From Gekko japonicus (taxonomy: Eukaryota), in NCBI RefSeq assembly GCF_001447785.1, contig NW_015172565.1, positions 347,947-411,946 on the forward strand: DNA of 64,000 bases, in the 5' to 3' direction. Below the pieces are notes generated by a model, which was not told where the DNA came from, did not search any database, and saw nothing but the letters and a program-made list of their open reading frames with translations. Position 1 is the stretch's first letter, and every line of letters starts with the position of its first letter. Position numbers and translations under genes: made by a program. Of the stretch, positions 4,223 through 31,693 are shown piece by piece.

Positions 4223-4365
4223 CGGATTTCTGAAGAGTGATATAAAATCAGGTTTGTGTTTCTTTAAAACCTGATCAAGAAGGTGTATCGCTTCTGGCTG
4301 TCTTTTCCATATTGCATTAACCACAGTCTGCCAAAGGTCTTTGTAGGGCCCCCATAAACTAGCAA
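4223..4365 (-). CDS. NUP205: NUP205 coding exon 2
   Basis: ttcag|..ASLWGPYKDLWQTVVNAIWKRQPEAIHLLDQVLKKHKPDFISLFRNP|gtaaaa; 143 nt, frame-consistent with exons 1 and 3. Confidence 0.96.
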
Positions 4366-6130: not shown

Positions 6131-6339
6131 GGACTCTTTTCACGTTAACGCCAAGCTCCCTAATCGGTTGCTTGGAAGCGCCTTTGACTCCTCGTGGACA
6201 TGGGAGGCTTAGGGTCGTTCGCTTTCGCAGCGCAAGGAGCGCAGAAACTGACATGGCACCGAAACCACAACACTGTAGAAAACAGACACAAACTACACTC
6301 GTTGTCGCCCGCTATAACTCCCGCACGGGTTCCTCATAC

Positions 6340-6367
6340 CTGAAATTACCGCCAACGGCGCCGCCAT
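6340..6367 (-). CDS. NUP205: Nucleoporin NUP205, coding exon 1 (MAAPLAVIS, phase-1 end)
   Basis: Minus strand reads aaaATGGCGGCGCCGTTGGCGGTAATTTCAG|gtatga inside a CpG island; resembles the vertebrate NUP205 N-terminus (MATPLAVNS) and splices in frame to exon 2. Confidence 0.93.
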
Positions 6368-6860
6368 TTTGGAAACTCTGTGCGATCCCAAAGGTCGTCT
6401 CTTCCGATAGGCCCAGAAATATAGGAAGGTGACCACAGTAATGCCGGCATTAAAAAACAATAAACAAACCGGATTTTTCTGTTACTCAACTGAGAAATGC
6501 CAGGACCAGGTCTCCCTTATTGTTTGCCATCCACATTTGCGGATAGCGCCTCAGTTAACGGAATTAGATGGACGCCAAGCGTACAGGCTCAGGTAGCCTG
6601 GCTAATCAACATTGCGGGGACCCGAAGCAATGGTCTCTGGGAACTGTAGTTCCAGTCTGCTTCACGCCGAAAAGGCGGGAAAGGTAGTGCCAAAGAACTC
6701 TTATTAAGCGACTTCTAGTTATTTGTCCAAGTAGAGAGTTAAAGGAAAAACCAGTTAGGTTTGGGACACACACAGCCGTTTTTTCTCTAGGTGGTGCCGA
6801 TGTTTTCATATTTCTTTGCATGACTCTCGCGGCCGAAATGCTTGCTGGCCCCAAAACAAT
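6368..6860 (-). promoter_or_regulatory. NUP205 CpG-island promoter with ZNF143/ACTACA motif and E2F site
   Basis: CpG-rich; tgggaactgtagt at 6638-6650 (reverse of ACTACAnnTCCCA); ggcgggaaa at 6674-6682; YY1-like aaaatggcggc at the start codon. Confidence 0.75.
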
Positions 6861-7145
6861 GTTCTTGCCTTGGGAATATTACATTGTACACAGTACAAGA
6901 AGCAAAACTAGGCCACCTGTAAATAAAGTGTTTAAACACATTTTCGGGACTCCCTAACTATGCAGAACAGTAGCCTTGTTCATAAATTACAGTGAACGCA
7001 TGTACACTTGATTGTTCTTTGTATATGTAATTCTCCCGTTACAGCCTATCCATGTACAGCTGAATGTGTGCTACAAACACCGTGTACTGGTCCCCGGTTT
7101 CGTTGGTTAAAGTGAACGCATGTTGGACCTTTCTTACAAACGCAC

Positions 7146-7298
7146 GTTGTTGTTGTTGTTGTTCAGTCGCACAGTCGAGTCCGACTCTTCGCGACCCCAT
7201 GGACCAGATCACGCCAAGCCTTCCGGTCTTCCGCCGTCCTCTGAAGTTGGCTCAATTTCATGTTCGTTGCATCTATGACACTGTCTAACCATCTCATC
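7146..7298 (-). mobile_element. BovB/RTE 3' fragment
   Basis: (CAA)n tail and ggggtcgcgaagagtcggactcgactg terminus on the minus strand; similar to copies at 9.2, 20.1 and 24.8 kb. Confidence 0.85.
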
Positions 7299-7608
7299 TG
7301 GATCCCCCTGAATTAGAGCTCATCCCCAGACTACAGAGATCCGGGGAAAGTAGATGTTTTGGAGGGTGGCCTCTGTGGCATTGTACCCTACTAAAGTCCC
7401 TGTCCTCCCCAGCCTCCCCCCCCCCCCCCCTCCCCCGGGTGTGGGGCTGGCAACAAGGCAACTATGACTTTGTGAATTAACCACAAGAGGGATCATGCTC
7501 CAGGAACAGTACAGCTGAGAGTTAGCGAACGTTAGAAAGGGAATGGGAAACCTTAGTCTGCTCTGCATCACTTCCAGAAAATGCAGACGGGGGGGGGGGG
7601 GGGGGATG

Positions 7609-7610
<2 letters not shown>

Positions 7611-7655
<45 letters not shown>
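7611..7655. repeat. (GT)n microsatellite preceded by a poly-G run
   Basis: Direct reading. Confidence 0.95.
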
Positions 7656-7657
<2 letters not shown>

Positions 7658-7799
7658 CAGGAGTCCTCCTCCTCCTCTTGCCGTGCAGTTCCTCTCGGAT
7701 TCCCAGGAAATACTCTTGACAAACAAGCTGCCCTATCTCTCGAAGAAGCCGGAAGCTCAGAGGAGCTACGCTGATGGTTTTAATTATCAGAGCCTTGCA

Positions 7800-8640
7800 G
7801 AGTACTCCTGTGCCGTGAGATCCACTCGAAATAGGCTCGCAAAATCACCGAGTTGATCTCCTGGGCGACGCAGCCCGCGCCGGGCGAAAGAGGACGGGGA
7901 GGCTTCCGCGCTAGGAAAGGGAGGGACCGGCGGCTTCCGAGCGTCCATCCGGCGGGCGCACGTGCTGTTTACTCCGCCTCCTTGTGTGGCTGTGAGCTGA
8001 GACTCAGCTTCGCCGGATTCTCGCTGGGGAGACGCTGGAGCGGCTGGATCGAGGAGGCGTCTTGTGAGGGGTCTGGTGGGTGAGTAATCGCTGCAGCAGT
8101 GACTGCTGGGGGATGAGTAAGCGCCGGCTTCGTCGGGAGCCTCCAGTCCTCGGCTCTTCCCCGTCGCCTCCTGTCTCACTCTGGTCAGGCGCTGGGAGGT
8201 TCCCTCGGAAGCGGAGCGAACCAGACCGGTTGCTCTGCCCACAGCGAGGGCTCATCAGTTCCTTCTCCCCAGGATGTGAAGGGCCTTCTTTTCGAGAGGT
8301 CTCCGCCTTTGGGGGGTCTGGTCTGGCCGAGGGAGGGAGCCCCTTGGGGATCCGCAGGCCTTGCCCCCCGTGGAGCTTCGCCTCCGGCTGGCCTGCAAAC
8401 TACGGTTCGGCATGGCTGGCCCGTTCAGTGGCCCTAGTCTGTGTGCTTCATCCTTTAGGCAGTAACGACTTTCAGGCAGTTCTTGAATTAAGGATTCAAG
8501 AGAATCTGATTCAGTGTAGTGTGCTGACCAAGGATTTTCAGGCTAAATGATTTCCCCTCCCTCTTTCTTTCTTCGTTAATCCTCGGCAGGCTTGTGGTTC
8601 TGCTTCAGGCGTGTCGATTTTGGTTTTTAGGAACTGAGTG
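7800..8640 (+). promoter_or_regulatory. POLR3H: CpG island and probable non-coding exon 1 of POLR3H (donor gtgagt at 8080; alternative gtaagc at 8117)
   Basis: High CpG/GC; donor gg|gtgagt; the ATG-bearing exon downstream is preceded by a splice acceptor (ccccctgccag at 10817), which implies an upstream exon. TSS not determinable from sequence. Confidence 0.7.
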
Positions 8641-9193
8641 GGGTATCTAAAGAGGAATGATCCTGGCTTAGAGGAGGCACATGGGGTACCTTACAGAAGC
8701 TAATGTGTAGGGGCCTGGGTTTTTTAGGGGGGAGGGATGTTCAGGCACTTGTTTGAAGGCAGGGTGGGCTGATTTCATTCATCAGGAGCAATGATTTAAA
8801 TCAAATCACACATTTAGAAGTTTGAACGTGTACTTAATGGACCTGTATGTTGCTATAACAGTTCAAGCATTCCCACTTAAACGCATACCTTATAGCTGCA
8901 AAGTTGTATATGCGTAGATAGAAAATATATATCTGATTCTCATTGGGTACATGATAATGGCCTTGGCTGTAATCATCCAAAATGTTCTAGAACAGACTTG
9001 TAATTAACATACCAAAACAGATATGGGAAATCCCCATCTTGTTTGGCTGATAATTATAAATAGTCATACTCTTAAAAATTAAATACATCATAGTGGGTAT
9101 AAAAGAATGGGGGGAAAGCCATGCATATGGGCTCTGTGCGTAGTTTTGGTGTGATGGAGAAGTGCAGCTAAATAAGTAGATGGTAAGGGTAGA

Positions 9194-9356
9194 AGACGGG
9201 GACGGCAAAGGATGAGATGGTTAGACGGTGTCATCGATGCAACGAACAGGAAATTGAGCCAACTTCAGAGGACGGCGGAAGACAGGAAGGCCTGGCGGGA
9301 TCTGGTCCATGGGGTTGCGAAGAGTCGGACTCGACTGTGCGACTGAACAACAACAA
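9194..9356 (+). mobile_element. BovB/RTE 3' fragment with TSD
   Basis: GRQRMRWLD-coding end, (CAA)n tail, aagggtaga at 9185-9193 and 9357-9365. Confidence 0.85.
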
Positions 9357-9578
9357 AAGGGTAGATGGAGAAGAGAATGTTTTCTGCTGTTGGGAAAGGG
9401 GAAAAGATTTGCTTTTGATGAAGACAAAATTGGTTTTGAATATGACAAAATAAATATACCTGTCAATAAGCATAGTTATGTTCCCCCCCCCCCAGTTGTC
9501 TGACCAATTAAAGTGATCTCTGTGGCTTCTGAGTAAAAAAAACTTCCTCAGTCTTACTTTGGAGGACAGAAAAGATCC

Positions 9579-9941
9579 CGTTATGAAAACAGAAACAATA
9601 CATTTGCTCGCGTCTGATAGTTCTTGAAAAAAGACTCAGGAATCTTGTTATGTCTTAATGTAATAAAGACATGAGTGAGCTTATGCACAGTCTATATTAA
9701 AAGAGCATTGCAAGGATTGACCTAATGGGCCAATCAGAGAAGCCTTTGCCTTCGGCGGGAACCACTCTCATTGGTTCCAAGCTCCATATTCCTATTGGTT
9801 GTTATCTGTTTGTTGGGTGTGGTTTTGCCCGTTCAAATCATATATAAGCCAGCCTTGTTCTATGAAGTTTGTCTTTGTGTTATGAGCTGAATAAAATGAA
9901 ATCACTTGTTCAAGAAGCTGCCTCGATCTCAGTTCATAATA
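9579..9941 (+). mobile_element. Probable solo LTR in POLR3H intron 1
   Basis: Ends (c)gttatgaa...ttcataat(a) are inverted and resemble mutated TG...CA; internal CCAAT boxes, tatataag, then aataaa in U3-R order. Confidence 0.5.
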
Positions 9942-10165
9942 AATCTTAAATAATGTAGTGAGATGCGGTTTTCATTCCTCAAAGTCCTTGTGGATATCCT
10001 ATCATCTGAGCCTAGGAGGGACCATTCTTTGTATGGACACAACTTTTTAGATTCAGGTAGCAGAATATTCTTGTTTGGCTTCAGCAGTAATGCTACATCT
10101 GCTGTGGCAATTTCTGAAAGAGGATTTTCTCTTTGGAGAAAATTGCTAGGTTCTATGTCCTATGC

Positions 10166-10449
10166 GGTTCAAGACCCGGGTGCCGCAAGACAGGGTGAGC
10201 TCCTGTCTCTAGTTCCAGCTCCTGCCAACCTAGCAGTTCGAAAGCAAGAAATTGCAAGTAGATTAATAGGTACCACTTCGGTGGGAAGGTAACAGCGTTC
10301 CGTGCGCCTTGGCGTTTAGTCACGCCGGCCACATGACCACGGAAACGTCTTCGGACAGCGCTGGCTCTTCGGCTTTGAAACGGAGATGAGCACCGCAACC
10401 CTAGAGTCGGATTCGACTGGCTTTCGAGCAAGGGAACCTTTACCTTTAC
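10166..10449 (+). mobile_element. Sauria SINE, 5'-truncated
   Basis: (ACCTTT)n tail; 13-bp TSD ctatgtcctatgc at 10153-10165 and 10450-10462. Confidence 0.9.
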
Positions 10450-10841
10450 CTATGTCCTATGCTAATGAACGAATGTCTATATCACAACTAAAACTGACAC
10501 GGTATAAAGTATATGATCTGCACATTGTGGAAGGTGAGAATAAAGCATTTGCCCTTTTGGTCCTGGCCCATGTAACTTGTTAAGCTTATCAATGCCTTCT
10601 CATTTTTAGAAAAGATTTTCTTATATAAAACATCTTCAAACTTCATATATGCTTCAGCTATGATTTTTCTGGATAACATAGCTCGGTATTTCATACTGTC
10701 CAAGTAGTAGGCATTTAGTGGTTAAACAAAATAGAAAGTTGACCAATGAAAGATTTCTGACAACTATAATTGCAGAAAAGAATGTTCTCTCTCACTCTGC
10801 ATTTTCCCCCCTGCCAGGAACATTGCTTTTGCTTTGCCAAT

Positions 10842-10952
10842 ATGTTTGTGCTAGTGGAAATGACAGATACTGTGCGAATACCTCCATGGCAATTTGAAAG
10901 GAAGCTTAATGATGCAATCACAGAAGAATTAAACAAGAAGCTAGCAAATAAG
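10842..10952 (+). CDS. POLR3H: RNA polymerase III subunit RPC8, coding exon 1 (exon starts at 10818 with 24 nt of 5'UTR)
   Basis: [37 protein letters not shown]|gtaaag; recognisable RPC8/RPC25 N-terminus. Confidence 0.96.
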
Positions 10953-11455
10953 GTAAAGTTTAGAGTGCTGTAGGCCAGTGCTTGATTAACATATATATAT
11001 ATAGGGCAAACCATGGTTGCCATCATCACAACAAAAAAGCTGACCTCTAGCCTTAATTCAGTCCCTCTCCAATTTCTCATAATTTCATTATTGCTTTAAG
11101 AAGCTTGATTTAATTCACCTACCACTACTGAATGGTTTTCACATATAAACAAGGAATGTCAAAACCTGCATGCACATGCTTTTAATGTCATACAACAAAG
11201 CATATTGATGTGAAATGATAAAAAGAGCTTCTACTGAGAATCAGTGTGAGGCACTACAATAAAAGCATTGCTGAAAATACGACGCCATAATGAAGTTTCT
11301 AAGTGCCATGGCAACCTGGAACCTGGGAATTTTTGAGCCCTGTTAGAGGGCTGTAATGGGAATATATTCCAAAGTCAGAAGCCTTGATATTTAGCTACAT
11401 ATTCAAAAGTGTTAAAGAACACTGTTAAAGAACAGTGTGGTTCTTTACTATGACC

Positions 11456-11660
11456 ATATGAAGCTGCCTTGTACTGAATCAGACTGTTAGAATATCTATC
11501 TTGGATTGGCTAGTCTGACTAGTCTGACAACAGTTCTCCAGGCAAAGAGACGTCTTTTCCAACCTATCACCTGAGATCCTTTAACTAGAGAGGTCAGAGA
11601 TTGAACCTGGTAGCTTCAGCATGCAAAACGTTATCACTGAACCTTAGTCTCTCCCCATAA
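11456..11660 (-). mobile_element. Degenerate tRNA-derived SINE (Squam2-like)
   Basis: Similar to 31478-31693 (atgaagctgcctt...gattgaacctgg). Confidence 0.6.
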
Positions 11661-12042
11661 TACTAGTCATGGTGCAAATTGATACTTTTAATAAGTGTAA
11701 TGTGCAAACAGCTGTCCCCAGTCATTGCCAATTTTAACAGACTGGATAGAATTGGGAGCAAATTAAGTTCTGTATCTCTCCATTGCTAACACTTGTTGTC
11801 TAGGTGTACTGTAATAAAATGCAGGAGAGCAGAAAAATAAAGAGTCAAAATCAACTTTTTTGGTTGCTCTGGGATACATATGGCAGTATCCCTTTGGAAA
11901 TCTATTTTTGCCAAGGTTTCTGTATGAACCACTTCTATCCATTCAGTTATTATGCTTCAGTTCACCAGGCTGGTTTATTTGTATGGCCTTTCTTGTGCAT
12001 AAATTCTGATATGCTATTTAAGGAAGGTTTAACATATTTTCT

Positions 12043-12178
12043 TGTTCCAATGTATCTGAAATAGTGTGCCTTGCACATGAAAGCTCATACCTTGATTAAA
12101 CCTTTGTTGGTTTTAAAAGTGTCACTGGACTCTAAATTTGTTCTACTGCTTCAGACCAACATGGCTGACCATCTGGAT
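12043..12178 (+). mobile_element. Penelope-like element terminal fragment
   Basis: tctgaa..gtgtgc..gcacatgaaagctcatacc..ctttgttgg..gtcactggactc; repeated at 24.2, 27.5, 52.2 and 54.6 kb. Confidence 0.65.
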
Positions 12179-12233
12179 ATATTTTCTCATTGTTACTGGG
12201 ACCTATTGCTATGTAAGCTCTTTCCCCAAACAG

Positions 12234-12330
12234 GTTGTATATAACGTTGGCCTCTGTATTTGTCTGTATGATATCACAAAGCTGGAAGATTCCTATATAT
12301 TTCCAGGAGATGGTGCGTCACACACAAAAG
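12234..12330 (+). CDS. POLR3H: POLR3H coding exon 2
   Basis: aacag|[32 protein letters not shown]|gtttgt; 97 nt. Confidence 0.96.
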
Positions 12331-13613
12331 GTTTGTCAAATGTTTATCTTAATCTAGTCTCTTTGTGAAATTAAAACTATAAGAAACCTGAGGGAGATTT
12401 GCAATTGCTGACAATTGCAGGTCTTTAACAGTTCTTTTTTTAGAGGGATCTTAAGAAATGCTGACAACATCACAGCAGCATAAATACTCCTTTACTCCTT
12501 AATCTACATAATGACTGCAGTCCAGGAGAAAGTGCCAAGTACATCTGGGAAGACACTGTTTCATAAAGCCAAAATAGTTTGAGGAATGAAGATTCCGTTT
12601 AATCCTTAGTACCATCTTCCCTTGAGACAGAGTTATGGTGACTATTCTGATATGCGACAACATTTCCTTTTCAATATGTTTTTGTATAAATGATTGTCAT
12701 CTTTTTCCTGGACTGTTTGGCTATTTTTCATCCACTGCTTAAAGAAAATGAAAACTACTGGCAGGAGGCTTATCCCATTCTGTATTTGATTTGCTCATGC
12801 CCATATTTCCTGGTGACCTCACTTTCATGTATCTTGCAGACGGAATCTTAAGAAGATAAATTCCATCTCTTTGGGTGGAAAGAGGGCAGTCCTATCTACA
12901 TTTCCCTTACTGCTGCACTTCATCCAGCTGCTGTCTTATTTGATCGAGTTTGAGCTCAAAACCAGTTATTTTTCAATCTTTTAGACTTGCAGAAATTGGA
13001 TTCTTGTGCTCTGTATGTTATTAGTACCATATGAGCCAGAAGCCTAAAGGAAAGGCTTTAGGATTGGGAAGGGCAAAATCAGTGCTGTGTGTGAACTGTG
13101 TGAACATGACAGGTGAAAGATATCAGAGGGTTGTTGATGACCTTGTTGAGGGAAAGTGTGACTATTAATCAGTAGTATAAATACCAAAATGTCTCTTACA
13201 GGTACCGTGGGTCTGGTTTTGTTGCTCTGCTTTGCATTTACCTACATGCATCAAGCACTACTCTTCCCATCTATTTGCCCCTTCTTAAGGAAACATGAAG
13301 TTTTTGAGCAAGTACAATTTATACAGAGTCTTTCCATTGCTCATGCAATCTCTTAATACTTTCTGGAGACACCTTTCCATGCAGACCTGAGTGTGGACCC
13401 CTCTTCTTTTAAAAAATTGTCTGCTAAAAACAGTCCCCAAATGTAGTGGAACTTTACATAAATGAGTAGAGAATACTACCATAATGCTGATGCCTGATTG
13501 TGTCAAGTTGTGTTTATTGAAAATACAGATTTCTAGAGAATGCAAGTACAGGATAACTGTGCTTTAATGTACTTAAGGACGTCACATTAATTTATTATCC
13601 TTGCTGTTTTCAG

Positions 13614-13700
13614 TGCATTTTCGGTATGTTGTATTTCACCCTTTTCTGGATGAAATTCTGGTTGGAGAGATAAAAGGCTGCAGTCTGGAAGGAGTCCGTG
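13614..13700 (+). CDS. POLR3H: POLR3H coding exon 3
   Basis: ttcag|[29 protein letters not shown]|gtaagt; 87 nt. Confidence 0.95.
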
Positions 13701-13796
13701 GTAAGTCTTAATTTTACTACTGAGGAGGTTGGAACTCAGAAGTAAGGAAGGAGTAAGTCCTGAAGGGAATGTCATTATAGTGGACTGCAACAGTGG

Positions 13797-14030
13797 AGAG
13801 CCAGTGTGGTGTAGTGGTGACTCTAATCTGGAAAAATGGGTTTGATTCCCCACTCCTCCATGTAAAGCCTGCTGGGTGACCTTGGGCCAGTCACAGTTCT
13901 CTCAAAACTCTCTCCCCCCCAGCTAGCTAACAAGGTGTCTATTGTGGGGAGAGGAAGGGAAGGCGACTGTAAGCCTTACAGAGACTCCTTACAGTAGAGC
14001 AAATTGGGGTATAAAGACCAACTGTTCTTT
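13797..14030 (+). mobile_element. tRNA-derived SINE (Squam3-like)
   Basis: gagagccagtgtggtgtagtgg head with A/B boxes; family repeated several times in the window. Confidence 0.75.
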
Positions 14031-14798
14031 TAAATTATTGGTATACTTGTTGAGTTGCCTGTCTGGAGGGTGTTCCGCCCACTTAGTAATGTCTAAAACT
14101 TGTTTTGAGCTGCCAGTTAACATCACTAGATTGCAGAACTTAACCACTTGAAGTGTGGGAATTATGTTTCTCCCCCCAGGGAACTGAGGACAAAGGACCC
14201 TAAATGTGCAACTAATTCCCAACTGCTTTGAACCCAAGACAGTGTGCTGCTATCATACTGATATTGAGGCCTCTTTTGGTCCTGAATGCAGTGTATCTTA
14301 AATTTGTAAGCCACTTGGATTGTCCAGTTCTCTGTGTTGCCTGGCCTGTGAGAAAGACATTTATTGGGATAGGATGTTAACATGGAATATCAGTTCAAAG
14401 GAAGCTACTGTTCCTTTTGTGTTTGCTTTTAACTTGATTGTAGTTGCCTGTAGTAACTGGAATCTCTCCTTTGTAGCCGTATGACATTGCCAAAAAGCCT
14501 GTGCACACCAAGGAGTGGTAGGCTTTATTTTTTTCAAAAGCAAATAACACATACATAGCGGGAGAAGAAGAGAAGAATATCACTTGTGGTTTAAAGTATT
14601 ATAGTGCCAATAACAGATTTGTTTGGATGTTCAGATATATTAAAGGCAGCTTTAATACTGTGCTATAGCAGGGAGAATGCTGAGTCTGTGTTCAAAATCT
14701 TATTCTGGAGTGTCACTGGGTAACCTAGGAAAGCCTTTAAAATGTGGTGTCACATTTTGCCTGAATAATCTCTATATTAATTTGAATTCTTCCTGCAG

Positions 14799-14862
14799 TT
14801 TCTCTTGGGTTTTTTGATGACATCATCATTCCTCCAGAATCTCTACAGCAACCTGCCAAGTT
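14799..14862 (+). CDS. POLR3H: POLR3H coding exon 4
   Basis: tgcag|[22 protein letters not shown]|gtatcttt; 64 nt; followed by a U12-type donor. Confidence 0.95.
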
Positions 14863-15330
14863 GTATCTTTTGAACAGCTTCACCCTGACTGATGTATAAA
14901 AATGTGCTTATCTTAAAACCGACCCTGTGTGTACAAAGCATGATAAGTTGCTTTGTTGCAACATGTTCTGGCCACTATCATTAAAGAATGGCCAATCAGT
15001 GTAACAGCTGCCCTGAGCCTGCTTGTGGGGAGGGCGGGGTATAAGTTTGATAAAATAAATAAGCCACCAGAAAAAGCATGTGCAGAATTTTTTAGTTTCC
15101 GCAGACTAGTGTAGTGGAGGGCAATGGAGAGAGTAAGCATATGTGGCTGGGTCAGCTGAGGGCTGGTAAATAGTAGTCATCTACTTGGCTTCCATCATTT
15201 ATATACTAATTGCCAAGACGCCCCCTCTGTGCAGATATCTAAATCCGCACATCGGGGGCACTTGGAGGGCAAAGAGATTTCCCTCCACACTTGGGGCAGT
15301 CCTCAGGTGTGCAGGAGAATCTGAAAAGTA

Positions 15331-15605
15331 GAGAGCCAGTTTGGTGTAGTGGTTAAGTGTGCGGACTCTAATCTGGGAGAACTGGGCTTGATTCCCCACT
15401 CCTCCACTTGCACCTGCTCATGTGACCTTGGGTCAGTCACAAGCTCTGGCACAGCTGTCCTTGAAAAAGAGCAGTTTGTGTCAGAGTTCTCTCAGCCCCA
15501 CCCACCTCACAGGGTGTCTGTTGTGGGGAGGGGAACGGAAAGGAGTTTGTAAGCCACTCTGAGACTCCAAGTGAAGAGCAGGGTATAAATCCAATCTCTT
15601 CTTCT
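15331..15605 (+). mobile_element. tRNA-derived SINE (Squam3-like)
   Basis: gagagccagtttggtgtagtggttaag head, (CTT)n tail. Confidence 0.8.
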
Positions 15606-15695
15606 ATATGGGGGATATTTAAATCCCCCAAAAAGTAAAAGAGCGTTCCCTGTGCTCTGGGAACTCTGCCTCACTGCCGTTAGGGGGGGATGCTT

Positions 15696-16000
15696 GGCAG
15701 GCCAGTGGCTGGAAACCGCTCAGGCCTCGGTGCCAAGGGGACAGTAGAAGGCTCAGCAGGCCCAGCGGCTGGAAGCTGCTCAGACCTCACCACTGCGGGT
15801 GGGGGGGGGCGGGAGAAAGCTCAGCGGGCCTGGCAGCTTGAAGCCGCTCTGGCCTCGTCGCCGGTGCTGGGGGTGGGTGGGAGAAGGCTCAGAGGGCCCA
15901 ACGGCTGGAAGCTGCCCAGATCTTGCCATTGCTGCGGGGGGGGTGGGAGGAGAAGGCTCGGAGGGTCCAGTGGCTGGGAGCTGCTCAGGCCTCGCCGCCA
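15696..16000. repeat. GC-rich minisatellite, about 5 diverged units of 60-70 nt
   Basis: Recurring gaaggctcag..ggccca.cggctggaagctgctcaggcctcg motif. Confidence 0.75.
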
Positions 16001-16377
16001 GGGAGGGAAAAGGCTTACCTGCGGCCACTTCCTCCTTAGTGCTGAGTTGCTTCTGGAGGCTGGGAGCCTTTGGGAATCCTCCTCCCCGTAACCCCCCCCC
16101 CCGCAAGTATTGCGGGTCCCGCTTCTTGTATACTCTTATCTCCACCAAGAATTCCTTCCTAATCACTTCCCAAGACCTGCATTGGGTTCTGTTTTCTTGC
16201 AGTGCAAACTAAAACAGGGTATGTGTTAGTAGATACAGCATGGTTTGTACATGAAGCAGAGTGAGAGAGGGCTACATAAAGAGATGAATGATGGGATTTA
16301 AAATACAGAAAGGGTTTCATGTTATGAACTTCAGTGCCTTGTTACTGTATTTCTGCCTTAACCTTTAATATGGCCAG

Positions 16378-16585
16378 TGATGAAGCTGAGCAGGTGTGGG
16401 TCTGGGAATATGAGACTGAAGAAGGAGCCCATGATCTGTATATGGATACAGGGGAGGAGATCCGTTTCCGTGTGGTGGATGAGACCTTCATTGATACATC
16501 CCCAACAGGCCCAAGCTCTGCACAGCCTTCTACCTCTGGTGCTGCAGATGAGGCCCAGAAGAAGGAGGCTCCCTATACTCTTGTG
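16378..16585 (+). CDS. POLR3H: POLR3H coding exon 5
   Basis: gccag|[47 protein letters not shown]...KKEAPYTLV|gtaaat; 208 nt. Confidence 0.96.
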
Positions 16586-17047
16586 GTAAATAACAAAGCT
16601 TCTCTCTGCACAGCCATTTGATATTAACTCTACTCAAAAGACCTTAAGTCAAAGCTAACATTGCACCATGGTGGTCACACACGAGGAAAGGATGCCAGAG
16701 AAATAGAAGATCCCAACACCAGCTGATAGGTTGCGTGTCTCAAAACAATGGGGCAGAATTTGGTAGATGAGTAACAATTAGCATGTGCAGCTATGCACAC
16801 TTGTTCTTGAGAAATGTGTGTGTGGTGTGTAATCAAAATCTAAACCTGTGATTAAGCATACAAGCTGTTGTATATCCTCAGGGGTAGGGGTGTTTTTTCA
16901 AATAGCCATTATTTTAAGTCATATTATCTTAAAATCCTTGTTGACCACCATTTAATGGAATGCTCAGAATATAGACGAATACTACAAAGGTTAAATGACT
17001 AATGGCAATGTTCTTAAAACTTTAATCTGTATTCTTTCTCTGGACAG

Positions 17048-17101
17048 GGATCAATCAGTGAACCTGGCCTAGGCCTCCTATCCTGGTGGACAAACAGTTA
17101 A
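17048..17101 (+). CDS. POLR3H: POLR3H last coding exon
   Basis: gacag|GSISEPGLGLLSWWTNS*; the six exons total 621 nt = 206 aa plus stop, no disruptions. Confidence 0.95.
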   Translation, partial: GSISEPGLGLLSWWTNS

Positions 17102-18174
17102 CCAGTGGGAGAGACTATTCTGAACCATGGAACTTTGCAAACTGGAAAAGCCTACTTTATCTTCTATGGACAATGGCAGTGAAAAGGCAACTTTGTTTTC
17201 TCACTTCTGCTTTGCATCAGGTCCACATCAATCTGAGTGGGAGCATCTAGTGTGATATCTGCACAGAAGAACAATCTATGAAGCTCTGACAGTGTACACT
17301 CAGAAGGTTCTGATCCCTCTAATAAGTGGGATTGTGTAAAAGTTCTTATGAATTCAGCCTGGAAAAACATTTAAAGCAGATAAATGAAATCATCCTCAAT
17401 GAGAGTTCTTGGAGGAGCGAAGTATTTCATACTGCTGCTTTTCATTTCATGATGTGATGGAAATGGGGAGGATGTTGTGAAAGCTAGCCCTTGCTTTGAC
17501 TGCTTTTGTTCCATTTCCCCCATTAGAATGGAGATTCTTCCATTAGCCAAGAGTGTCTGGGAAAGCAATGAGCTGGCCCTTCACAATTAACAAACCTTGG
17601 TGAGGAAGCCTCAGGCAGGAATCTGGCCCACAAGTGGGCTGAAATGTTGCCAAAAGGACCCTAAGCAAGTGCCCTTCCTAATCCTACTGTTTTCTGGGAA
17701 AACACACACCTGCCATCGTGTTTAGCTGTGATATTGCATGGATTTGGGTGGGTAATATTGTTTTCTGTAAACAAGACCTGAAAGCAACTAGAAGACTGAT
17801 CACTCATCTAAATGGATCTTTCATGCTATTGCATGACTGATGAAAAAATTCAGTTATCTGCTGCTAGTTTTCAATATTAGGAGGCAGATGTTTCTGCCTT
17901 ATGGCTGAGAGCTTTTCAGCCATTGAATGTGCGTGCAGAAGTTGACAGCGGGTGCTGAAACTCTTGTCTTCTGAACAGAAAATAATCACTTCCAATTGGA
18001 GAAGCAGTGGTGTAGGAATGAAGCCTGTAAGAGATTGGGCACCTGGCAAAGGGTGACAACTGTAATATATAACAAATTTCTGTATCTTATGTGGTGTTAC
18101 TGAATTAGTTTCTGGAGGATTATCCCTGTGAGGATTCCTCTAAAGCACCTTAGATGCTATTTAGCTGAAATTGT

Positions 18175-18180
18175 AATAAA
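18175..18180 (+). terminator. Probable POLR3H polyadenylation signal
   Basis: First AATAAA noticed after the stop codon (about 1.07 kb 3'UTR), followed by T-rich sequence. Confidence 0.55.
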
Positions 18181-19089
18181 ACTTGATAATGGATTTTCCT
18201 TTCATATTTATACTGTGTAGCAATGGCTAGAGGATTTTTGAAATAGTTCTGTAGACATCACTTCAAAAACTTTGAAACACAAACTGGAGAGTCTTGATTA
18301 CTGGACCTGGAGGGCAATTGGATAAGATGCATATACCATATTTACTGAAAAGACAACCCTGAATGGAAGACACCCCCATATTATACACCCCAAAAGGTTA
18401 TTATAGGATATAGCTATAATTTGTATGTAAGATGACCTCCCCCATCCCCATTTTAATGGCATATTAACACACACACCCCAATGTTGCATTTGACTAATAC
18501 CGTAATGTATGGCTTATTGCAGTTCCTGTTGGTGGTATTTTCTTTTCAGGGGGCAGAGCCTTTTTTGTAACGTATGTACGAATGTGGACCACTACTGGTG
18601 AAATTCATAAACATTTAACTGCTTTTATTTAGACTGTAGTCCTAAAGATTGATCTGGAAACAAAGTACTAACTATAGCCAAATTTTAATGAGCTTCAAAC
18701 AAGGCCTCCACTGGTCTTTTTAGGGCTTTGTCAATCTGTACAACATTAGTTGGATTCAGCAGTTCACTAGCAGAAGGCCCTAATGGTCATTGGATCTTTC
18801 TTGTTTACCATCCCCTCTGATAGCCTGCTGACAGAAAAAGAGAGGGTGACTTTGCTCCCTTCCACTCCTCACTGCAGCCCACTGACCTAGGTGGCTGTTA
18901 CTCCCTATGTTAACTTTGTTGAGGTAAGAAGGGATTTGTTGGGAGAGGGGAAAGTGCAGAAAATCTGTGATCCTTACATTAAGTAGATTGCTGGATCAAA
19001 CCCATTATGTTGCTCTTTTATCCACTGATCCATAGTTCTTGCTTTTTGTGCTACTTGTTGCTGGAACAGGTCCAGAGAAACAGATACAC

Positions 19090-19404
19090 CAGGCATGTCC
19101 AAGTTCGAACAGGTAGTGATCTGTTTTTTTCCAGCCAAAAGTGCCGGTGATCTACCACCATATAAATAAAGTTTCAAATTAGTTTCAAATTAGATTTTAA
19201 CCCACTAAAGTTGGGTTCCTCCGCCGCCCCACCATTTATAATGCACCTTCTGTCAGAAAGAACTGCGAACATTTTTTACCACCAATCATAAAAAAACCCC
19301 AAACACCTGCCCAGCAAACCAGGAGACCAAGTAAGGCTGGTGATCTACCTCTGACCTCTCCGCGATCTACTGGTAGATTGCGATCTACCTGTTGGACATA
19401 CCTG
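19090..19404. mobile_element. hAT-type MITE
   Basis: TIRs caggcatgtccaa / ttggacatacctg; 8-bp TSD agatacac / gcatacac; internal gatctac repeats. Confidence 0.75.
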
Positions 19405-20097
19405 GCATACACTATTAAAATAAATTTTAGATACACATGGAATTTGGTAGTGCCATGCCTCTTTGAAGTTGCCTTTAACAGCAAAATGTATTTGTTGGAG
19501 ATCACATGGATCCTGTCTTGTGCTTTGTGTAGCCATATAACCCAGAATATTTAATCACAGGTGTAGAATATAACCCCGGAAGTGTCAAGCTTTGTCATTT
19601 GTCCTTAATGGCTTCAAAAAGTGCACCTTATGTAGAAGAGGAAAAAAATCTTGTTTGTATGGCTTAGTCTCACAGCTAGTTACTCCATTAAGCTAAAGCA
19701 AAGGGCAAATCTGCTAGAACACAAGGTGGCTAAAGTTCACAGGTAAGCTGCTCTGCTAGTGCTGGACCTCAGCAGTTGCATTGTTCGGAGTTAGAGGTGA
19801 CTTTCCTACTAATTTATCCTGTCCTTCCCTATTCCATGATAATGACTCACAGGTTCCCAACCTTATTGTTAGAAAAGATATACATATTGTATGTTTTGAT
19901 ATGCTAATTTAAGTTGTATAAATTGGAGGCTATGATGAATCATCTAAAAAACTTTAACTGGGTGACAGCAGTAGCAAAAAAAAATACATAGAATGTTTAT
20001 TTAAAGCAAAAAAAAAAATCCCTATGAAATTAACACCCATACTTGAAGAATTATAACTCAAAACTTTCTTCCAGAATTTATACTTCAGTTAGTTTAA

Positions 20098-20750
20098 TGT
20101 TGTTGTTGTTCAGTCGCACAGTTGAGTCTGACTCTTCGCAACCCCATGGACCACATCACGCCAGGCCCTTCTGTCTTCCGTCATCCTCTGGAGTTTGCTT
20201 AATTTCATGTTCATTGCATCGATAACACTGTCTAACCATCTCATCCTTTGCCATCCCCTTCTTTGACCATCAATCTTTCCCAGCATCAGGGTCTTCTCCA
20301 GTGAGTGCTCCCTTCTCATTTGGCGGCCAAAGTATTTGAGGTTCAGCTTCAGTATCTGGCCTTCCAGGGAACAGTCAGGGCCACTAGTTCACGGATTCCC
20401 AAGATGTCAATGTTCAGTCTTGTCATCTCATTTTTGACCATATCCAACTTACCTTAATAAATCTTACATTCCAGGTTCCTTTGCAGTATTGTTCTTTGCA
20501 GCATCGGACTTTCCTTTCACCATCAGACACATCCAAAGCTGAGTGTCCTTAATGGCTTTGGCCCAGCCGCTTCACTCTTTCTGGGGCTACTTGTACTTGC
20601 CCTCTGCTCTTCCCCAGTAACATATTGGACACCTTCCGACCTAAGGGGCTCATCTTCTGGCGTCCTATCTTTTAGCTTTTTGTTACTGTCCATGGGGTTT
20701 TCTTGGAGTGGGTTGCCATTTCCTTCTCCAGTGGATCACGTTTTGTCTGA
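20098..20750 (-). mobile_element. BovB/RTE LINE 3' fragment with internal deletions
   Basis: Minus-strand ORF MRREHSLEKTLMLGKIDGQRRGWQRMRWLD typical of the BovB RT C-terminus; (CAA)n tail. Confidence 0.88.
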
Positions 20751-20949
20751 TGTTTTCTCTAGACTAATACCTTAGATTGCATCTTTGTAAATTTTGAACA
20801 ATACATTTGGGAGAATAGTAACATTTGCATGAATATAGTGCTGTTCTAATAAGATGGCTGTTCTAAGATAAAACTTACTACCATTTGTAGTATAAAACCT
20901 TGGAAATACATTTGCTGGCTAGAAAAAATTGTTAAAACAATCAGCTTGA

Positions 20950-21126
20950 TGTTTCCCTTCTCTGTGTAGAGTACTGTCAAGTTGCAGCCAACTTAGGGTG
21001 ACCCCATAGGGTTTTCAAGGCAAGAGCCGCTCAAGGCTTTCTTGGTGCTTTCCCATCCAAATACTGACCAGGGCCAACCCTGCTTAGCTTCTGCGATTGG
21101 GCTAGTCTGGGCCACCCAGTTCAGGG
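20950..21126 (-). mobile_element. 5S rRNA-derived SINE, degenerate
   Basis: Minus strand gaagctaagcagggttggccctggtcagtatttggatggga matches the 5S internal promoter region; RTE-like tail. Confidence 0.7.
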
Positions 21127-21897
21127 TATGTTTCCTTTACTTTTAATTAAACTGGAGCAATTCCTAAATTTGGCACAGCTGTCATCCTTCCTCCTTTTCA
21201 TTTTGATATAGATGGCTATTATGCTGGTGTCCCTGCTCCAATGTTTTGCCCTGAAGAAAGGAGGGGGAGCCCAGAACAGCCTCTCATATTTTTTAAATAG
21301 AAGGCCAAGAGCAGGAGAGTTAGCATTAAAGGGGCTGAACTACATGCAGGAAATCCAAAATGTATTTGTCCTTTCCCCCCCTTTTCTTAGCAAACTACAG
21401 CGGGGGGGGGGGGGGTTAACCATTTTCCTAGTGTGATCTTCAGCCAGATGAAAAATATAATTTTGTTTAGGAAACAAAAAACCCACAACCCACTCTGTCC
21501 TTGGGCTTTGATGCTCATACAGAGACGTTTTAGTTGTTGTTGTTGTTTTGGGGGGGGGAGAAAAAACAGCAGATCTGGTCCCAGGTCTTGCACATAAGGG
21601 TGGCTTCAGCCTAAAGCATCGCCAGCTTTGGAAGGAAGCTACTGCCAACAAGCTTTTTGCGCACCGATGGATTCGTGGTGGTTTCCCTGTACATCGCCTT
21701 AGCCCTAAGCGGCCAGGCGTCTCGTACATATAGATGTTATTTCACAGGTGAAGCCTCTGACAGTATACCCACCTTGTCTACTCTGACCCTATACTTAAGT
21801 TAGCGTGCTGTTGGAGAAGGGGAAGACGCTAATCAGCCTTGCCAACATGAAGGCTGCTGGACGAAGGAAGGGTCCATGGCGGAGCGGCTCTTCATAC

Positions 21898-21924
21898 GGA
21901 AATTACCCTCAGCCGCGCGGCTTT
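21898..21924 (-). pseudogene. Decayed duplicate of NUP205 exon 1 (ATG changed to AAA, 1-nt deletion before a retained GTATGA donor)
   Basis: ccaagaaagccgcgcggctgagggtaatt vs ccaaaatggcggcgccgttggcggtaatt, 21/29 ungapped; reads KAARLRVIS vs MAAPLAVIS; flanks colinear with the NUP205 promoter. Confidence 0.8.
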
Positions 21925-22330
21925 CTTGGAAAACTCGTTCAGTGGTCGTCGCTCGACCTAAAGCGCCGCCGTTGACGAGAGGCCCGCAAAGTGCCAGAGA
22001 CGACAAAGCTAGTGCCGGTGTAGAAACTCCACTTTCCCCACACGCCGCTACCTGCTGGCGCAGTTTCTCGAAATACTCTTTTAAGACCCTGGGCCACTGT
22101 TGCTTTATAAACCTCAGGGTCTTCCAGGTTGAGAATCCGAACCTTAGGAGTACTGGCGAGGTGGTTTTTACTAACCCCGAAAGTGAGGACCTGACAGCAA
22201 TGGAAATTGGGAGCTGTAGTTCCTGGACCCTCTCGGCGGGAAAGGAGATTGAAGAGTTTTTAGACGACTTCGTTGTCTGCGACGGCGTCAAATATAATTT
22301 TGTCTGAGAAAGAGGTTCAATTAAACTGCT
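21925..22330 (-). promoter_or_regulatory. Duplicate of the NUP205 promoter (orphan CpG island)
   Basis: tgggagctgtagt at 22208-22220 and ggcgggaaa at 22235-22243 in the same order and similar spacing as at 6638-6682; several additional colinear blocks. Confidence 0.75.
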
Positions 22331-22622
22331 AATTTCAGGCGAGGGGGCTACAATCACAGGGTTACATGACAGAACAGGTCCACAATTATAATGATCTTGA
22401 GGAATTCTTAAAAGACATGCCAAGAACACTTTTAATCTCCACTGGGGGGACGGACTCTGTTATTGCCATATGTAAAACAGAAGGGAGCGACTTCTAAATT
22501 AACCTTCTCATCAGTTTGTTAAATTTGATTTGCAAGTTATGCTAATTTGCTAATATTTTTTTACTCCTCCCTCCACACACTGGTGAGGGGATGTGATCTT
22601 CTGCACATCACTGGATGTGGTT

Positions 22623-22974
22623 AAAGGTAAAGGTAAAAGTTCCCTTGCTCGAAAGCCAGTCGAATCCGACTCTAGGGTAGCGGTGCTCATCTCCGTTTCA
22701 AAGCTGAAGAGCCAGCGCTGTCCGAAGACGTTTCCGTGGTCACGTGGCCGGCATGACTAAACGCCAAGGCGCACGGAACGCTGTTACCTTCCCACCGAAG
22801 TGGTACCTATTTATCTACTTGCAATTTCTTGCTTTCAAACTGCTAGGTTGGCAGGAGCTGGAACTAGAGATGGGAGCTCACTCCATCATGCGGCACCCGG
22901 GTCTCGAACTGCTGAACTACTGACCTTCCACAGCCTGCAGTTCAGCGTCTTAACCACTTGAGCCACCGCAGCTC
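22623..22974 (-). mobile_element. Sauria SINE, full length
   Basis: tRNA-like head gagctgcggtggctcaagtggttaag, body near-identical to 10166-10449, (ACCTTT)n tail. Confidence 0.9.
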
Positions 22975-23042
22975 AATTACACCACAGCAATTCTTTGCAG
23001 CTGGCCACACTGGAAAATAGCGGCTGAAACGCCCTGTCTGAA

Positions 23043-23125
23043 CGCACCCTTAATGTGAAATAGCCAACACCATGTGGATGCAGCGCACCCTTAATGTGAA
23101 ATAGCCAACACTATGTGGATGCAGC
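23043..23125. repeat. 41-bp tandem duplication
   Basis: cgcacccttaatgtgaaatagccaacac(c/t)atgtggatgcag occurs twice. Confidence 0.9.
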
Positions 23126-23818
23126 CTTCCGTGGATGTAGATTTAATTGATTTCAGTTGACAATCACTGCATTTACAATAATAATAATAATAATGCTTTC
23201 GATTTATTAATCGCTTTCCCCACAAGTGGGCTCAAAGTGATTTACAGTTACTCTTTAGACAGGGGACTAACAATGTTTTTCATAGGGGATAGGGAAGACA
23301 ACATATAATTCATTTAAGTTGCACACGCCGTACTGTCCGATGGAAAAGCCTGTGGCTTTTATATAGAGGAGACAAAGTACTATCATTATATTCTTATTTA
23401 AGGAAGCCCTTATGGCTGGTTAGGAATATGATAGGGCTTAGCTTCTAATGCCACCAGCAGCTGGAAGGTGAGGCTCAGAGTGGAGGACTAACATCTGGGA
23501 TGCTTCCCCCCACCATCATGTCAGCAAAGAACCCCAGCTTTTTGCATTCAACTATTTTGTGAAGCATCTTTTATTGTAAAACACCAAAACTGGACCTACA
23601 TCTTCAAAGACAGAGTTACTGAACATCATTCTCTATGAGAAGCATATCCTGAGAAGGCAAGTTTTGCTCCAGGCATTTCCATTCATACCCACTCATCTAC
23701 TAAGCTGATTAACTGAAACTGAGCACTGATTACACAGCATTTGCTTAATGTATTTCATTAAGCCTCCAAAAACAAACAAAACTATTCCCTTAACTCATTT
23801 ATCTATCAATAGATAGTA

Positions 23819-24046
23819 AAAAGGTAAAGGTTCCCTTGCTCGAAAGCCAGTCGAGTCCGACTCTAGGGTTGCGGGGCTCATCTCCGTTTCAAAGCCGAAG
23901 AGCCAGCGCTGTCTGAAGACGTTTCCGTGGCCATGTGGCCGGCATGACTAAACACCAAGGCGCACGGAACGCTGTTACCTTCCCACTGAAGTGGTCCCTA
24001 TTTATCTACTTGCAATTTCTTGCTTTCGAACTGTTCGGTTGGCGGG
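23819..24046 (-). mobile_element. Sauria SINE, 5'-truncated
   Basis: 14-bp TSD atcaatagatagta at 23805-23818 and 24047-24060. Confidence 0.9.
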
Positions 24047-24842
24047 ATCAATAGATAGTACATGACTTTTGAACTACTTCCCTCTCTATTGGTGACATCT
24101 ATAAAACAAAATTGACATCAGCTATATATATCTCATTCCTCCCCCCACTATTGCTGACTGTATAAAATTATCAAATTAGACTAAAACTTGATCAAAACCC
24201 ACCCTTTGTTGGTCTTAAAGGTGCCACTGAACTCAAACTTTGTTCTGTTGCTTCAGACCAACACGGCTACCCATACTGAATCTGGCATTATCTTAGTTAA
24301 CATTAATATCCATATGATCCTGTGTACAATTCTTCTATAGTATTAGAATTCCTCTATATACTTCCCTACATATTGAATAAACTCAGACAAGAAGCCGTTT
24401 TGCTAAGTAAGTAAAATGAGTTATTCTTGCTTGTGAACAAGAAGAGAGAAATCTGAGGGCGAAGAGCTGTTTTTTCTCTGCCAGCAACCCTGCCACTGTG
24501 ATACTGCTGCTACTGACTGAGTGGTGTTTTCACTGTGCATTTATTTGCCTATCCATCTGCTAGGAATGTTGTCCGTCTACCAACATTGTTATGGATGCAG
24601 AACTGTGTATTTGAGAATGGACACTGCTGTTGATATATTTATTCTTATGACTTGCTAATTGTTTTTGAGTTGCTGCTGTGCATAGGATTTCTAGCTTTCA
24701 TCAGTGCAAGCAGCAGCACCGTGATGTCGGAATGACCATCCAATGTATTTTTCCAGCTTCCTCGTTTAGAACAGAAAACTAGTTAGGGGGATGTTATTGA
24801 AGTATCAAATTATGGCTGAACTAGAAAAGTGAACAAGGATAA

Positions 24843-25138
24843 GTGGTTTGCCCTTTCGAGTTCCCTGGAAGGCCAGATACTGAAGCTGAACCTCAAATAC
24901 TTTGGCCACCAAATGAGAAGGGAGCACTCACTGGAGAAGACCCTGATGCTGGAAAGACTAAAGGTAAAAGAAGAAGAAGGGGACGGCAAAGGATGAGATG
25001 GTTAGACAGTGTTATCGAGGCAACGGACATGAAATTAAGCAAACCCCGGAGCACAACGGAAGACAGGAGGGCCTCCTGTGATGTGGTCCATGGGGTCAAG
25101 AAGAGTCAGACTCGACTGTGCGACTGAACAACAACAAA
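24843..25138 (+). mobile_element. BovB/RTE 3' fragment
   Basis: RRRRGRQRMRWLD-coding end and (CAA)n tail. Confidence 0.85.
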
Positions 25139-25539
25139 ATAAAGAGTCAGTGTGGTATAGCAGTTAGACCAAGATCTGGGAGATCCAGGTTTGAATCCCA
25201 GCCACTCACATATTCTCAGCCTAACCTGCCTTACAGGGTTGTTGTGAGGAAACATGAAGACGAAGCAATGTGGTAAAGCCACTTTCGGTCCCCATTGGGG
25301 AGAAAAATGGGATACAAATGAAGTGAATAAATAACTACATAAATCCAAAAGGCAACTAAACGCACAAGCATTAAGTTTAAAAGTGATTAAATAAATAAAT
25401 AAAACCGGACCTCTAAACAATAACAAACACCGAGAAGAAAAATTACTGCCAAGTGGTATCACTACAAATACAGCCAGTCTTTTCCTTAAAAAACCGAAAT
25501 ATTTCAATATTACACTGAATATAATTTTGGGTTTCAAAG

Positions 25540-26100
25540 CGGGGACTCGCGGAAGGGTACTGAGGACCAGCGTTATCTTACAGGCTCCAGAATGTAGAAC
25601 GAGCCAAAGCTCCTGAAGCGGTATCGCATTCTGCCCATTCGATTTCTCACGCCCCTCTTCCCTTGCAGTCCTTGACTCCAGCGGAATTTATTGCATCCAT
25701 TCGATAAGGAAGAAATACTCCAGGAATACGCCACAGAATGTGGCTTCGGGATAGTCCAACCTAAAGAGGCGACCGGGAAGTCTTGAAGGCTCCATCGAGC
25801 TAGGTCAGCCCTTTAGTTCCTTTGGAGTACACGAGAACAAGCGCATACCCTACTTCCGCAGCTTGTGAATCGTAGCGTGAAGAAGCTGCTGAGCCTGTTG
25901 AACCTCTGAATTGACAAGCATGCTCACCGGCTAGCCACTCCGCCGCCGGTAAACCACGGTCCTTCCCACCCCAAGACTACAATTCCCATCATGCTCTCCC
26001 CACTGTCGCGTCCGACCTTTTCTTTCCGCCCACCCGCCTGCCCATCCGTCGGCTCGTGCGCATGCGCGTTGGAAGCAGCGTCCGGGGCAGGCAGGCAGTC
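25540..26100 (+). promoter_or_regulatory. CNOT4 CpG-island promoter
   Basis: Canonical ZNF143 composite motif actacaattcccatcatgc at 25976-25994; NRF1 palindrome tgcgcatgcgc at 26057-26067; GC boxes. Confidence 0.8.
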
Positions 26101-26316
26101 TCTCCCTAATGTAAGATGGTGGCCGGTCTGGCAGCGGAGCGCGCAGAGCCTGAAGATTACCCGTCTCTCACATAAAGGTCGTCGGTGGAGCTCCCCCCAG
26201 TCCCTTTCCCGCTGCCACGGAAGAGAGAGAGGGCGAGAAGAAGAGCGAGCCCTAGAGAGCCCCGCCGCCCCCGCCGCCAGACAGCCGGTCGCCGTGGAGC
26301 AGAGACGACGAGGCGG
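26090..26316 (+). other. CNOT4: CNOT4 non-coding exon 1 (5' boundary approximate)
   Basis: Within the CpG island; strong donor gcgg|gtgagt at 26317; the next recognisable exon on this strand is the CNOT4 ATG exon. Confidence 0.75.
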
Positions 26317-31477: not shown

Positions 31478-31693
31478 ACACATGAACACATGGAGCTGCC
31501 TTATACTGAATCAGACCCTTGATCCATCAAGGTCAATATTGTCTACTCAGATGGGCAGTGGCTCTCTGGGGTCTCAGGCTGAGGTCTTTCACATCACCTC
31601 CTACCCAATCCTTTCAACTGGAGATGCCAGGAATTGAACCTGGGACCTTCTGCATGCCAAGCAGATGCTCTGCCACTGAGCCACAGCCCCTCC
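31478..31693 (-). mobile_element. tRNA-derived SINE (Squam2-like)
   Basis: Head ggaggggctgtggctcagtgg...ccaggttcaattcc with A/B boxes. Confidence 0.75.

Follow-up and report, generated by a model that had tools for sequence, protein, structure and literature searches.

A POLR3H gene of Gekko japonicus, likely copied as DNA with its introns from the ACO2-CSDC2 interval into the NUP205/CNOT4 promoter

How does the gene for a stalk subunit of RNA polymerase III (Pol III), with all of its introns in place, come to lie between NUP205 and CNOT4 in a gecko, when the same gene in human and chicken lies beside ACO2? The question is raised by a 64,000-nucleotide stretch of the Gekko japonicus assembly (the window; contig NW_015172565.1, positions 347,947 to 411,946), in which a sequence-only reading had placed an intact POLR3H at 10818-18180 between NUP205 and CNOT4 and had proposed a DNA-mediated transposition, leaving either a replacement or a second paralog. 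Exon matches on both sides identify the neighbors as NUP205 on the minus strand and CNOT4 on the plus strand (Table 1). The analysis reported here indicates that the sole intact POLR3H was likely copied as DNA, introns included, from between ACO2 and CSDC2 into the NUP205/CNOT4 promoter, likely in a squamate ancestor, and that the original then decayed.

The gene itself encodes the familiar POLR3H/RPC8 (RPC25) stalk subunit, with the same six coding exons and the same minor intron as elsewhere. The frame is full-length and intact, its six coding exons totaling 621 nt for 206 amino acids plus the stop, and the five introns of the coding region are all kept and all GT-AG; the exon count, the protein length and the splice sites of the sequence-only reading are thus borne out. 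Both Pfam cut-offs are passed, by SHS2_Rpb7-N with 33.2 bits (cut-off 24.8) and by RNA_pol_Rbc25 with 56.4 bits (cut-off 25.1), exon 5 matches human RPC8 (PDB 7a6h_G) at E 5.6e-33, and identity is 204/206 to Paroedura picta, 189/206 to chicken and 181/205 to bat. Judged by this conservation and by its single-copy status, the protein is an ordinary conserved RPC8 that would serve as a normal Pol III stalk subunit; a tree places it among the squamate RPC8 rows, and an acceleration of protein rate after the move is unsupported (p<0.05 in 2 of 24 Tajima tests, both of them Python with the newt outgroup). The intron at 14863-16377 has the sequence features of the U12 type: its 5' site is GTT followed by GTATCTTTT, a CCTTAAC motif places the branch A 16 nt before the AG that ends the intron, and there is no pyrimidine tract. 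Against the U12 consensus 5' site (RTATCCTTT-like) the gecko donor differs at one place, +6. Supplement file 1 of PMC6717393 counts human POLR3H among the minor-intron genes, with donor GTT followed by GTATCCTCC and branch site GCTGCCTTGACC, and the gecko intron interrupts the gene at that same junction. Retained introns mean that this copy is not a retrogene, as the sequence-only reading had also maintained. Its extent for the gene held at the 3' end, where 18180 is the last base of AATAAA, but missed a non-coding first exon that ends at 8079.

No other intact copy was found. The full-length gecko RPC8, searched against the assembly, matched all six exons only at the window locus, the next match having E 1.13; exon 5 alone gave one match among five candidates, and a search of the assembly for the SHS2 family gave two matches above the cut-off, both within the window gene. 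The window POLR3H is accordingly the sole intact copy found by these searches.

The old site retains a decayed relic. In PMC12580483 the human order is TOB2, PHF5A, ACO2, POLR3H, CSDC2, PMM1, DESI1, in agreement with the position beside ACO2/CSDC2 that the sequence-only reading had given, and the chicken chromosome 1 entries in the supplement of PMC8980806 place POLR3H (+, 49,458,574-49,465,331) tail-to-tail with ACO2 (-, 49,465,617-49,486,042), with 286 bp between the gene ends. Gecko contig C11793, whose genes were identified by characteristic motifs and Pfam matches, carries DESI1-PMM1-CSDC2-ACO2-PHF5A-TOB2, the human order without POLR3H, and an intact POLR3H is absent between CSDC2 and ACO2; the one gap in that interval, 432 bases at C11793:226953-227384, is too small to conceal it. 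On the strand opposite ACO2, oriented as in chicken, lie counterparts of exons 2, 3 and 4 (Table 1), a piece of intron 4 (C11793:256470-256529) and pieces of the 3' untranslated region (UTR), all collinear with the gene and retaining splice sites and intron fragments. Among 15 POLR3H query pieces compared with 80 tile-strands, four (exons 3 and 4 and two pieces of the 3'UTR) ranked first of 80 at C11793:250-260 kb (+), and exon 2 ranked first in the adjoining tile; the other ten gave no stand-out match at the old site. The five pieces together score 293 against a null of 163.5 +/- 7.8 (maximum 191, n=283 other tile-strands), having been picked after a first look, with four of them falling in one tile and in order. 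This relic was detected by DNA alignment and is overlooked by a protein search alone: in the ACO2 region, tblastn with the protein had no match under E 0.5. The stretch of exons 5-6, ~1.2 kb, seems to have been deleted from it. The retained introns, the relic at the old site and the ancestral chicken position support the proposed DNA-mediated transposition, and one intact copy together with a relic at ACO2-CSDC2 decides for replacement over a second paralog.

Several smaller observations concern the same interval. A search for sequence from the donor on the 5' side of exon 2, or beyond the 3'UTR, found none. Two weak, out-of-order matches to POLR3H pieces at C11793:240983-241083 and 263397-263505 (scores 48 and 51) may be chance or scattered fragments. 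The gene (16190-16207) and the relic (C11793:256512-256529) share an acceptor-like motif inside the minor intron, which may be an alternative 3' splice site. Upstream of CSDC2 there is a second CpG island (C11793:227400-229400), in which a ZNF143-like motif at 229368 points toward ACO2; this island could be what is left of the former POLR3H promoter.

At the new site the insert is bracketed by two copies of the target, here called block B, the NUP205/CNOT4 head-to-head promoter block that comprises NUP205 exon 1, the promoter and the CNOT4 first exon. The left halves of the two copies, the first with a ZNF143/Staf-like motif near 6650, are identical in 239 of 361 columns (score 68, next unrelated 51), and the right halves in 231 of 306 (score 126, next unrelated 48), with 61 GC-rich tile-strands averaging 35.7 as background for the island alignment; both are the best non-self match among 1,495 tile-strands (1.2 Mb of assembly). 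The copies have the same order and the same orientation, i.e. they are direct repeats around POLR3H. As read from the sequence, the layout is B-POLR3H-B: the NUP205 5' end and exon, the POLR3H body, then a dead NUP205 5' end and the CNOT4 island. The sequence-only reading had overlooked both decayed duplicates in its account of the locus. No alignable sequence was found in the junction intervals 8365-10790 and 17900-21885, and a genome-wide DNA search with 7990-8400 returned only itself, this search being too insensitive for a 75% copy.

The island in the left copy is transcribed as the seventh, non-coding exon of POLR3H. Three raw RNA runs place 18, 13 and 3 reads on 7670-9150; in one of them (run X23) five reads end at 8080 and resume with the letters 10819-10848, a splice from 8079 to 10818, and no loose end is listed at 7670-9150 for the other two runs. 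The first intron is consequently chimeric, with its donor in B-derived DNA and its acceptor at the POLR3H ATG exon. The POLR3H 5' exon is unmatched at the old site (rank 43 of 80), and the 5' end was most likely taken from the new site rather than brought from the old. Human and chicken POLR3H adjoin ACO2, whereas gecko POLR3H stands head-to-head with NUP205 and begins with an exon whose paralog is the island upstream of CNOT4.

The non-canonical position claimed by the sequence-only reading stands against human and chicken, but not as a quirk of one genome: the event appears to be old and probably common to squamates. Accession numbers usually follow gene order within one annotation, and the distance between the POLR3H and CNOT4 numbers was used as a proxy for adjacency, one that tests CNOT4 and leaves NUP205 untouched. 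The numbers are no more than 11 apart in 11 of 17 squamates, against 0 of 8 turtle or bird series. The close cases are Paroedura (6), Anolis sagrei (2, in two releases), Podarcis lilfordi (8), Crotalus tigris (1), Candoia (1), Pogona (2), Notechis (9), Pseudonaja (11), Protobothrops (5, on the same 209 kb contig) and Erythrolamprus (11), together with Phrynosoma (8), a weaker case with few isoforms. Six turtle series are 131, 180, 261, 975, 1,681 and 1,765 apart and two birds 1,869 and 4,786; Python and Pantherophis were excluded from the count, their numbers not being comparable. With chicken POLR3H adjoining ACO2 and none of the eight turtle or bird series close, the NUP205-POLR3H-CNOT4 order is not general outside mammals. 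In the RPC8 tree all 19 squamate rows fall on one side of a branch (support 100/99), and the geckos group together weakly (71/89). By the accession proxy the move is probably squamate-wide and not peculiar to G. japonicus, and the simplest reading is a single event, likely before geckos split from other squamates ~200 million years ago.

From the intact gene, the collinear relic, the two direct copies of the target and the new first exon spliced to the ATG exon, the following history may be proposed. Block B would have been duplicated around the insert to give B-POLR3H-B, and the insert, which lacked or lost its own promoter, would have been expressed from the duplicated CNOT4-side half of B. 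In the left copy NUP205 would have retained exon 1, and the exon derived from CNOT4 would have turned into the POLR3H 5' exon; in the right copy CNOT4 would have kept exon 1 and the NUP205 exon would have decayed. With the new copy expressed from the outset by a housekeeping CpG promoter, the original would have become redundant, free to be lost, and would then have decayed. The physical route would be one replication-based template switch to the donor and back to an upstream point of the target, a two-junction "cycle of templated insertion", which is the most likely mechanism and one in which belief and doubt are about evenly balanced. The fuller claim, that a single germline template switch in a squamate ancestor moved POLR3H, gave it the promoter and the first exon of CNOT4, broke the coupling of NUP205 with CNOT4 and created the NUP205-POLR3H head-to-head pair, is advanced tentatively and falls somewhat short of an even chance.

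Some retrogenes also replace their parent and recruit a neighbor's promoter, and the gecko gene resembles them in its replaced parent and borrowed CpG promoter, but differs in that all introns were kept and the promoter was duplicated, not shared. Comparable too are the cycles of templated insertions described by Li et al. (2020, PMC7025897), in which a distant template is inserted and a host segment re-replicated, mostly with two junctions, to give B-X-B, and which can place a gene under foreign regulatory elements, as proposed for the gecko. The gecko likewise has the host segment twice, in direct orientation, around the insert; those cycles are, however, somatic events of cancer genomes with readable junctions, whereas the gecko case would be germline and fixed in a whole clade, and its junctions are decayed. 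The account of single-gene DNA transposition in plants by Woodhouse, Pedersen and Freeling (2010, PMC2869330) describes, as in the gecko, retained introns, an identifiable parent site and target-derived non-transposon direct repeats. The plant repeats are 30-550 bp and recent, while the gecko block, at least 2.0 kb on the left and at least 4.7 kb on the right, is old; unlike the plant cases as described there, the gecko repeat supplied a promoter and first exon and the parent was lost. Duplications through circular intermediates (tilapia vasa, PMC3245284; cattle KIT, via the review PMC3420103) share with the gecko a DNA-level copy at a distant site, but their mark is a permuted insert order, which was not found in the gecko, and a large target duplication is atypical for them. 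The known kind is therefore DNA-level duplicative transposition with target-derived flanking repeats; the unusual variant is a moved gene that acquires its promoter and first exon through duplication of a two-way promoter, replaces an essential parent and becomes fixed across a clade.

A number of observations weigh against this history. The halves of B are separated by 1.3 kb in the left copy and 4.0 kb in the right, and between the halves the left copy aligns with the right nowhere above background. The comparison of the B copies was made within the gecko assembly alone, and we infer from sequence that CNOT4 uses the exon at 26284-26632 as its first. RNA support for the 5' junction amounts to five reads in one of three raw-read runs. 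At the old site the relic lacks recognizable counterparts of the first coding exon, exon 5 and exon 6 (ranks 79, 73 and 4 of 80), and a coarser 150-nt tiling gave just one in-order match to the relic and one out of order. Six of the 17 squamates do not have close numbers (Eublepharis 496, Sphaerodactylus 62, Sceloporus 1,394, Podarcis muralis 320, Thamnophis sirtalis ~18,000 and Lerista 41 locus tags apart), and accession order is a mere proxy for gene order, one that misses true neighbors, as the difference between P. muralis and P. lilfordi in the same genus shows. Finally, the breakpoints are too decayed to read, so that one event and two are not separable by them.

One rival is a two-step route to the same outcome, in which B was first tandemly duplicated and a POLR3H fragment, carried as a circle or by ectopic recombination, was later inserted between or into the copies. 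Transposed Arabidopsis genes often carry target-derived genic flanking repeats, attributed in PMC2869330 to tandem repeats and circles, and the B copies are somewhat more diverged (Jukes-Cantor distances 0.45 and 0.29) than some relic pieces (0.14-0.36), distances that cannot serve as a clock, since the local alignments behind them are gapped and the exons were formerly under selection. The signature of a circle is absent, however: the exon order in the insert is unpermuted and donor 5' sequence was not found downstream of the gene, a weak test given the decay. Nor did the donor site yield any B-derived sequence, and the route needs two rare events at one spot. It is the best-surviving alternative, possible but rather unlikely.

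Lower in probability, and clearly unlikely, is an old duplication whose two copies persisted until squamates radiated and were reciprocally lost, some lineages keeping the ACO2-side copy, or else a move limited to part of Squamata. The six squamates without close numbers would fit such a history, and the relic is still recognizable, which could mean late loss. Close numbers nevertheless span a gecko, a lacertid, iguanians and snakes, the two Podarcis species expose misses of the proxy, and the RPC8 tree keeps the geckos together, if weakly, and the squamates as one group.

That nested inversions with staggered breaks carried POLR3H, in place of a copy-and-paste, is very improbable. Donor and target may once have been near each other, the three turtle gaps of 131-261 hinting at one shared chromosome with the sites some tens of genes apart, and there is a synteny break against human beyond NUP205 (UTP20, ARL1). 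But the gene orders flanking both sites are undisturbed, the relic keeps the ancestral orientation, the B copies are direct and not inverted repeats, and the scenario calls for two or more precisely nested inversions. An assembly error or chance alignment, with the gene misplaced and the relics noise, is hardly credible: although the assembly is fragmented (191,500 contigs) and no single contig piece or read covers the whole ~20 kb stretch, the window contains no N, eight unique pieces of run X1 (which may itself depend on the assembly) tile 6200-26199 at depth 62-86, colinear pieces from a related organism (run X20) cover 8495-18364 with some short interspersed element (SINE) insertions missing, RNA joins the B-derived exon to POLR3H, no null tile scores as high as the relic or the duplicates, and other squamate annotations agree. 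The DNA-level copy, with later decay of the original, remains the likely explanation.

Table 1. Features of POLR3H, its neighbors and the two copies of block B in the window, with relic counterparts on contig C11793
Feature	Positions	Strand	Basis or remark
NUP205 exon 2 (left neighbor)	4223-4365	-	human NUP205 residues 11-57, E 9.5e-23
NUP205 exon 1, coding part	6340-6367	-	ATG 6367-6365, GT donor 6339, 28 nt, in phase with exon 2
Copy B1, left half: NUP205 exon 1 and promoter, ZNF143/Staf-like motif near 6650	6328-6725	+	aligns to 21886-22279
POLR3H non-coding first exon (seventh exon), in CpG island	~7800-8079	+	RNA depth from ~7770-7820 to 8080
Copy B1, right half: end of POLR3H first exon and intron start	8012-8364	+	paralogous to island upstream of CNOT4, 26284-26632
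POLR3H coding exon 1	exon 10818-10952, coding 10842-10952, ATG 10842	+	frame, Pfam, RNA splice at 10818
POLR3H coding exon 2	12234-12330	+	relic counterpart, with acceptor, C11793:244291-244371
POLR3H coding exon 3	13614-13700	+	relic counterpart, with acceptor, C11793:254988-255076
POLR3H coding exon 4	14799-14862	+	relic counterpart, with start of minor-intron donor, C11793:256061-256135
POLR3H U12-type (minor) GT-AG intron	14863-16377	+	human exon junction matched; junction inferred from protein alignment
POLR3H coding exon 5	16378-16585	+	matches human RPC8; relic counterpart none found
POLR3H last exon	17048-18180	+	coding 17048-17101, stop 17099-17101, 3'UTR, AATAAA 18175-18180; 3'UTR relic pieces C11793 ~256680-257230
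Copy B2, left half: decayed NUP205 exon 1 and promoter duplicate	21886-22279	+	CpG-rich; no ATG or donor left, ZNF143-like motif still present near 22220
Copy B2, right half: CpG island, GT donor 26317, inferred CNOT4 first exon and intron start	26284-26632	+	sequence
CNOT4 first coding exon, RING domain (right neighbor)	53162-53335	+	human NOT4 residues 1-58, E 1.6e-39

Other features of the window lie mainly in the first intron of CNOT4. Eukaryotes normally use the AGC anticodon for tRNA-Ala; an Rfam scan found only a tRNA, a tRNA-Ala with anticodon GGC at 31619-31690 (-) in this long intron, possibly a pseudogene or SINE head. Reverse transcriptase frames (RVT_1) at 34910-37117 (-) and 37319-37939 (+) are retroelements in the same intron, and a 711-residue open frame at 57267-59402 (+), with a cysteine cluster and no Pfam match, is presumably akin to the gag-like frame of DIRS-type retrotransposons. 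The stretches 9170-10639 and 15198-16136 are absent from the run X20 contigs and are probably recent insertions in this gecko lineage. On the wider contig, C12855, a putative sushi-domain-like exon lies between CNOT4 and STRA8 at C12855:485494-485970 (-), and motif scans place STRA8, WDR91 and AGBL3 beyond CNOT4, with CCDC134 and SNU13 on the start side of C11793; such scans of ~1.2 Mb found no block shared between the two contigs. UTP20 exons (+; E 2.6e-19 to human UTP20) adjoin NUP205 beyond its 3' end at ~249-292 kb of C12855, along with exons (-) that their motifs suggest are ARL1-like, where human presumably has SLC13A4 and others; synteny with human is broken just beyond NUP205.

The protein is known and the gene position is already implicit in public annotations. 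No paper on a move of POLR3H to NUP205/CNOT4 was found, most subscription papers lying outside the search; PMC13005343 names POLR3H, NUP205 and CNOT4 only as bare supplement rows. The case bears on genome history and involves no new protein function. An intron-bearing gene moved without its promoter is normally dead, and duplication of a two-way promoter at the target offers a way round this, each copy keeping one half; because the remnant at the donor site and the two promoter copies can still be recognized, the history is testable. For annotation, screens of orthology or gene loss that rely on synteny could wrongly call POLR3H lost in squamates. A squamate-wide move would count as a rare genomic change open to scoring in tuatara, dibamids and skinks; on that condition one would also expect POLR3H of squamates to share its regulation with NUP205 and not with CSDC2 or ACO2. 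Should the single-switch reading prove true, this locus would offer a marker for the whole clade, and a natural experiment with a date, in which the promoter of an essential, minor-intron-bearing Pol III gene was swapped.

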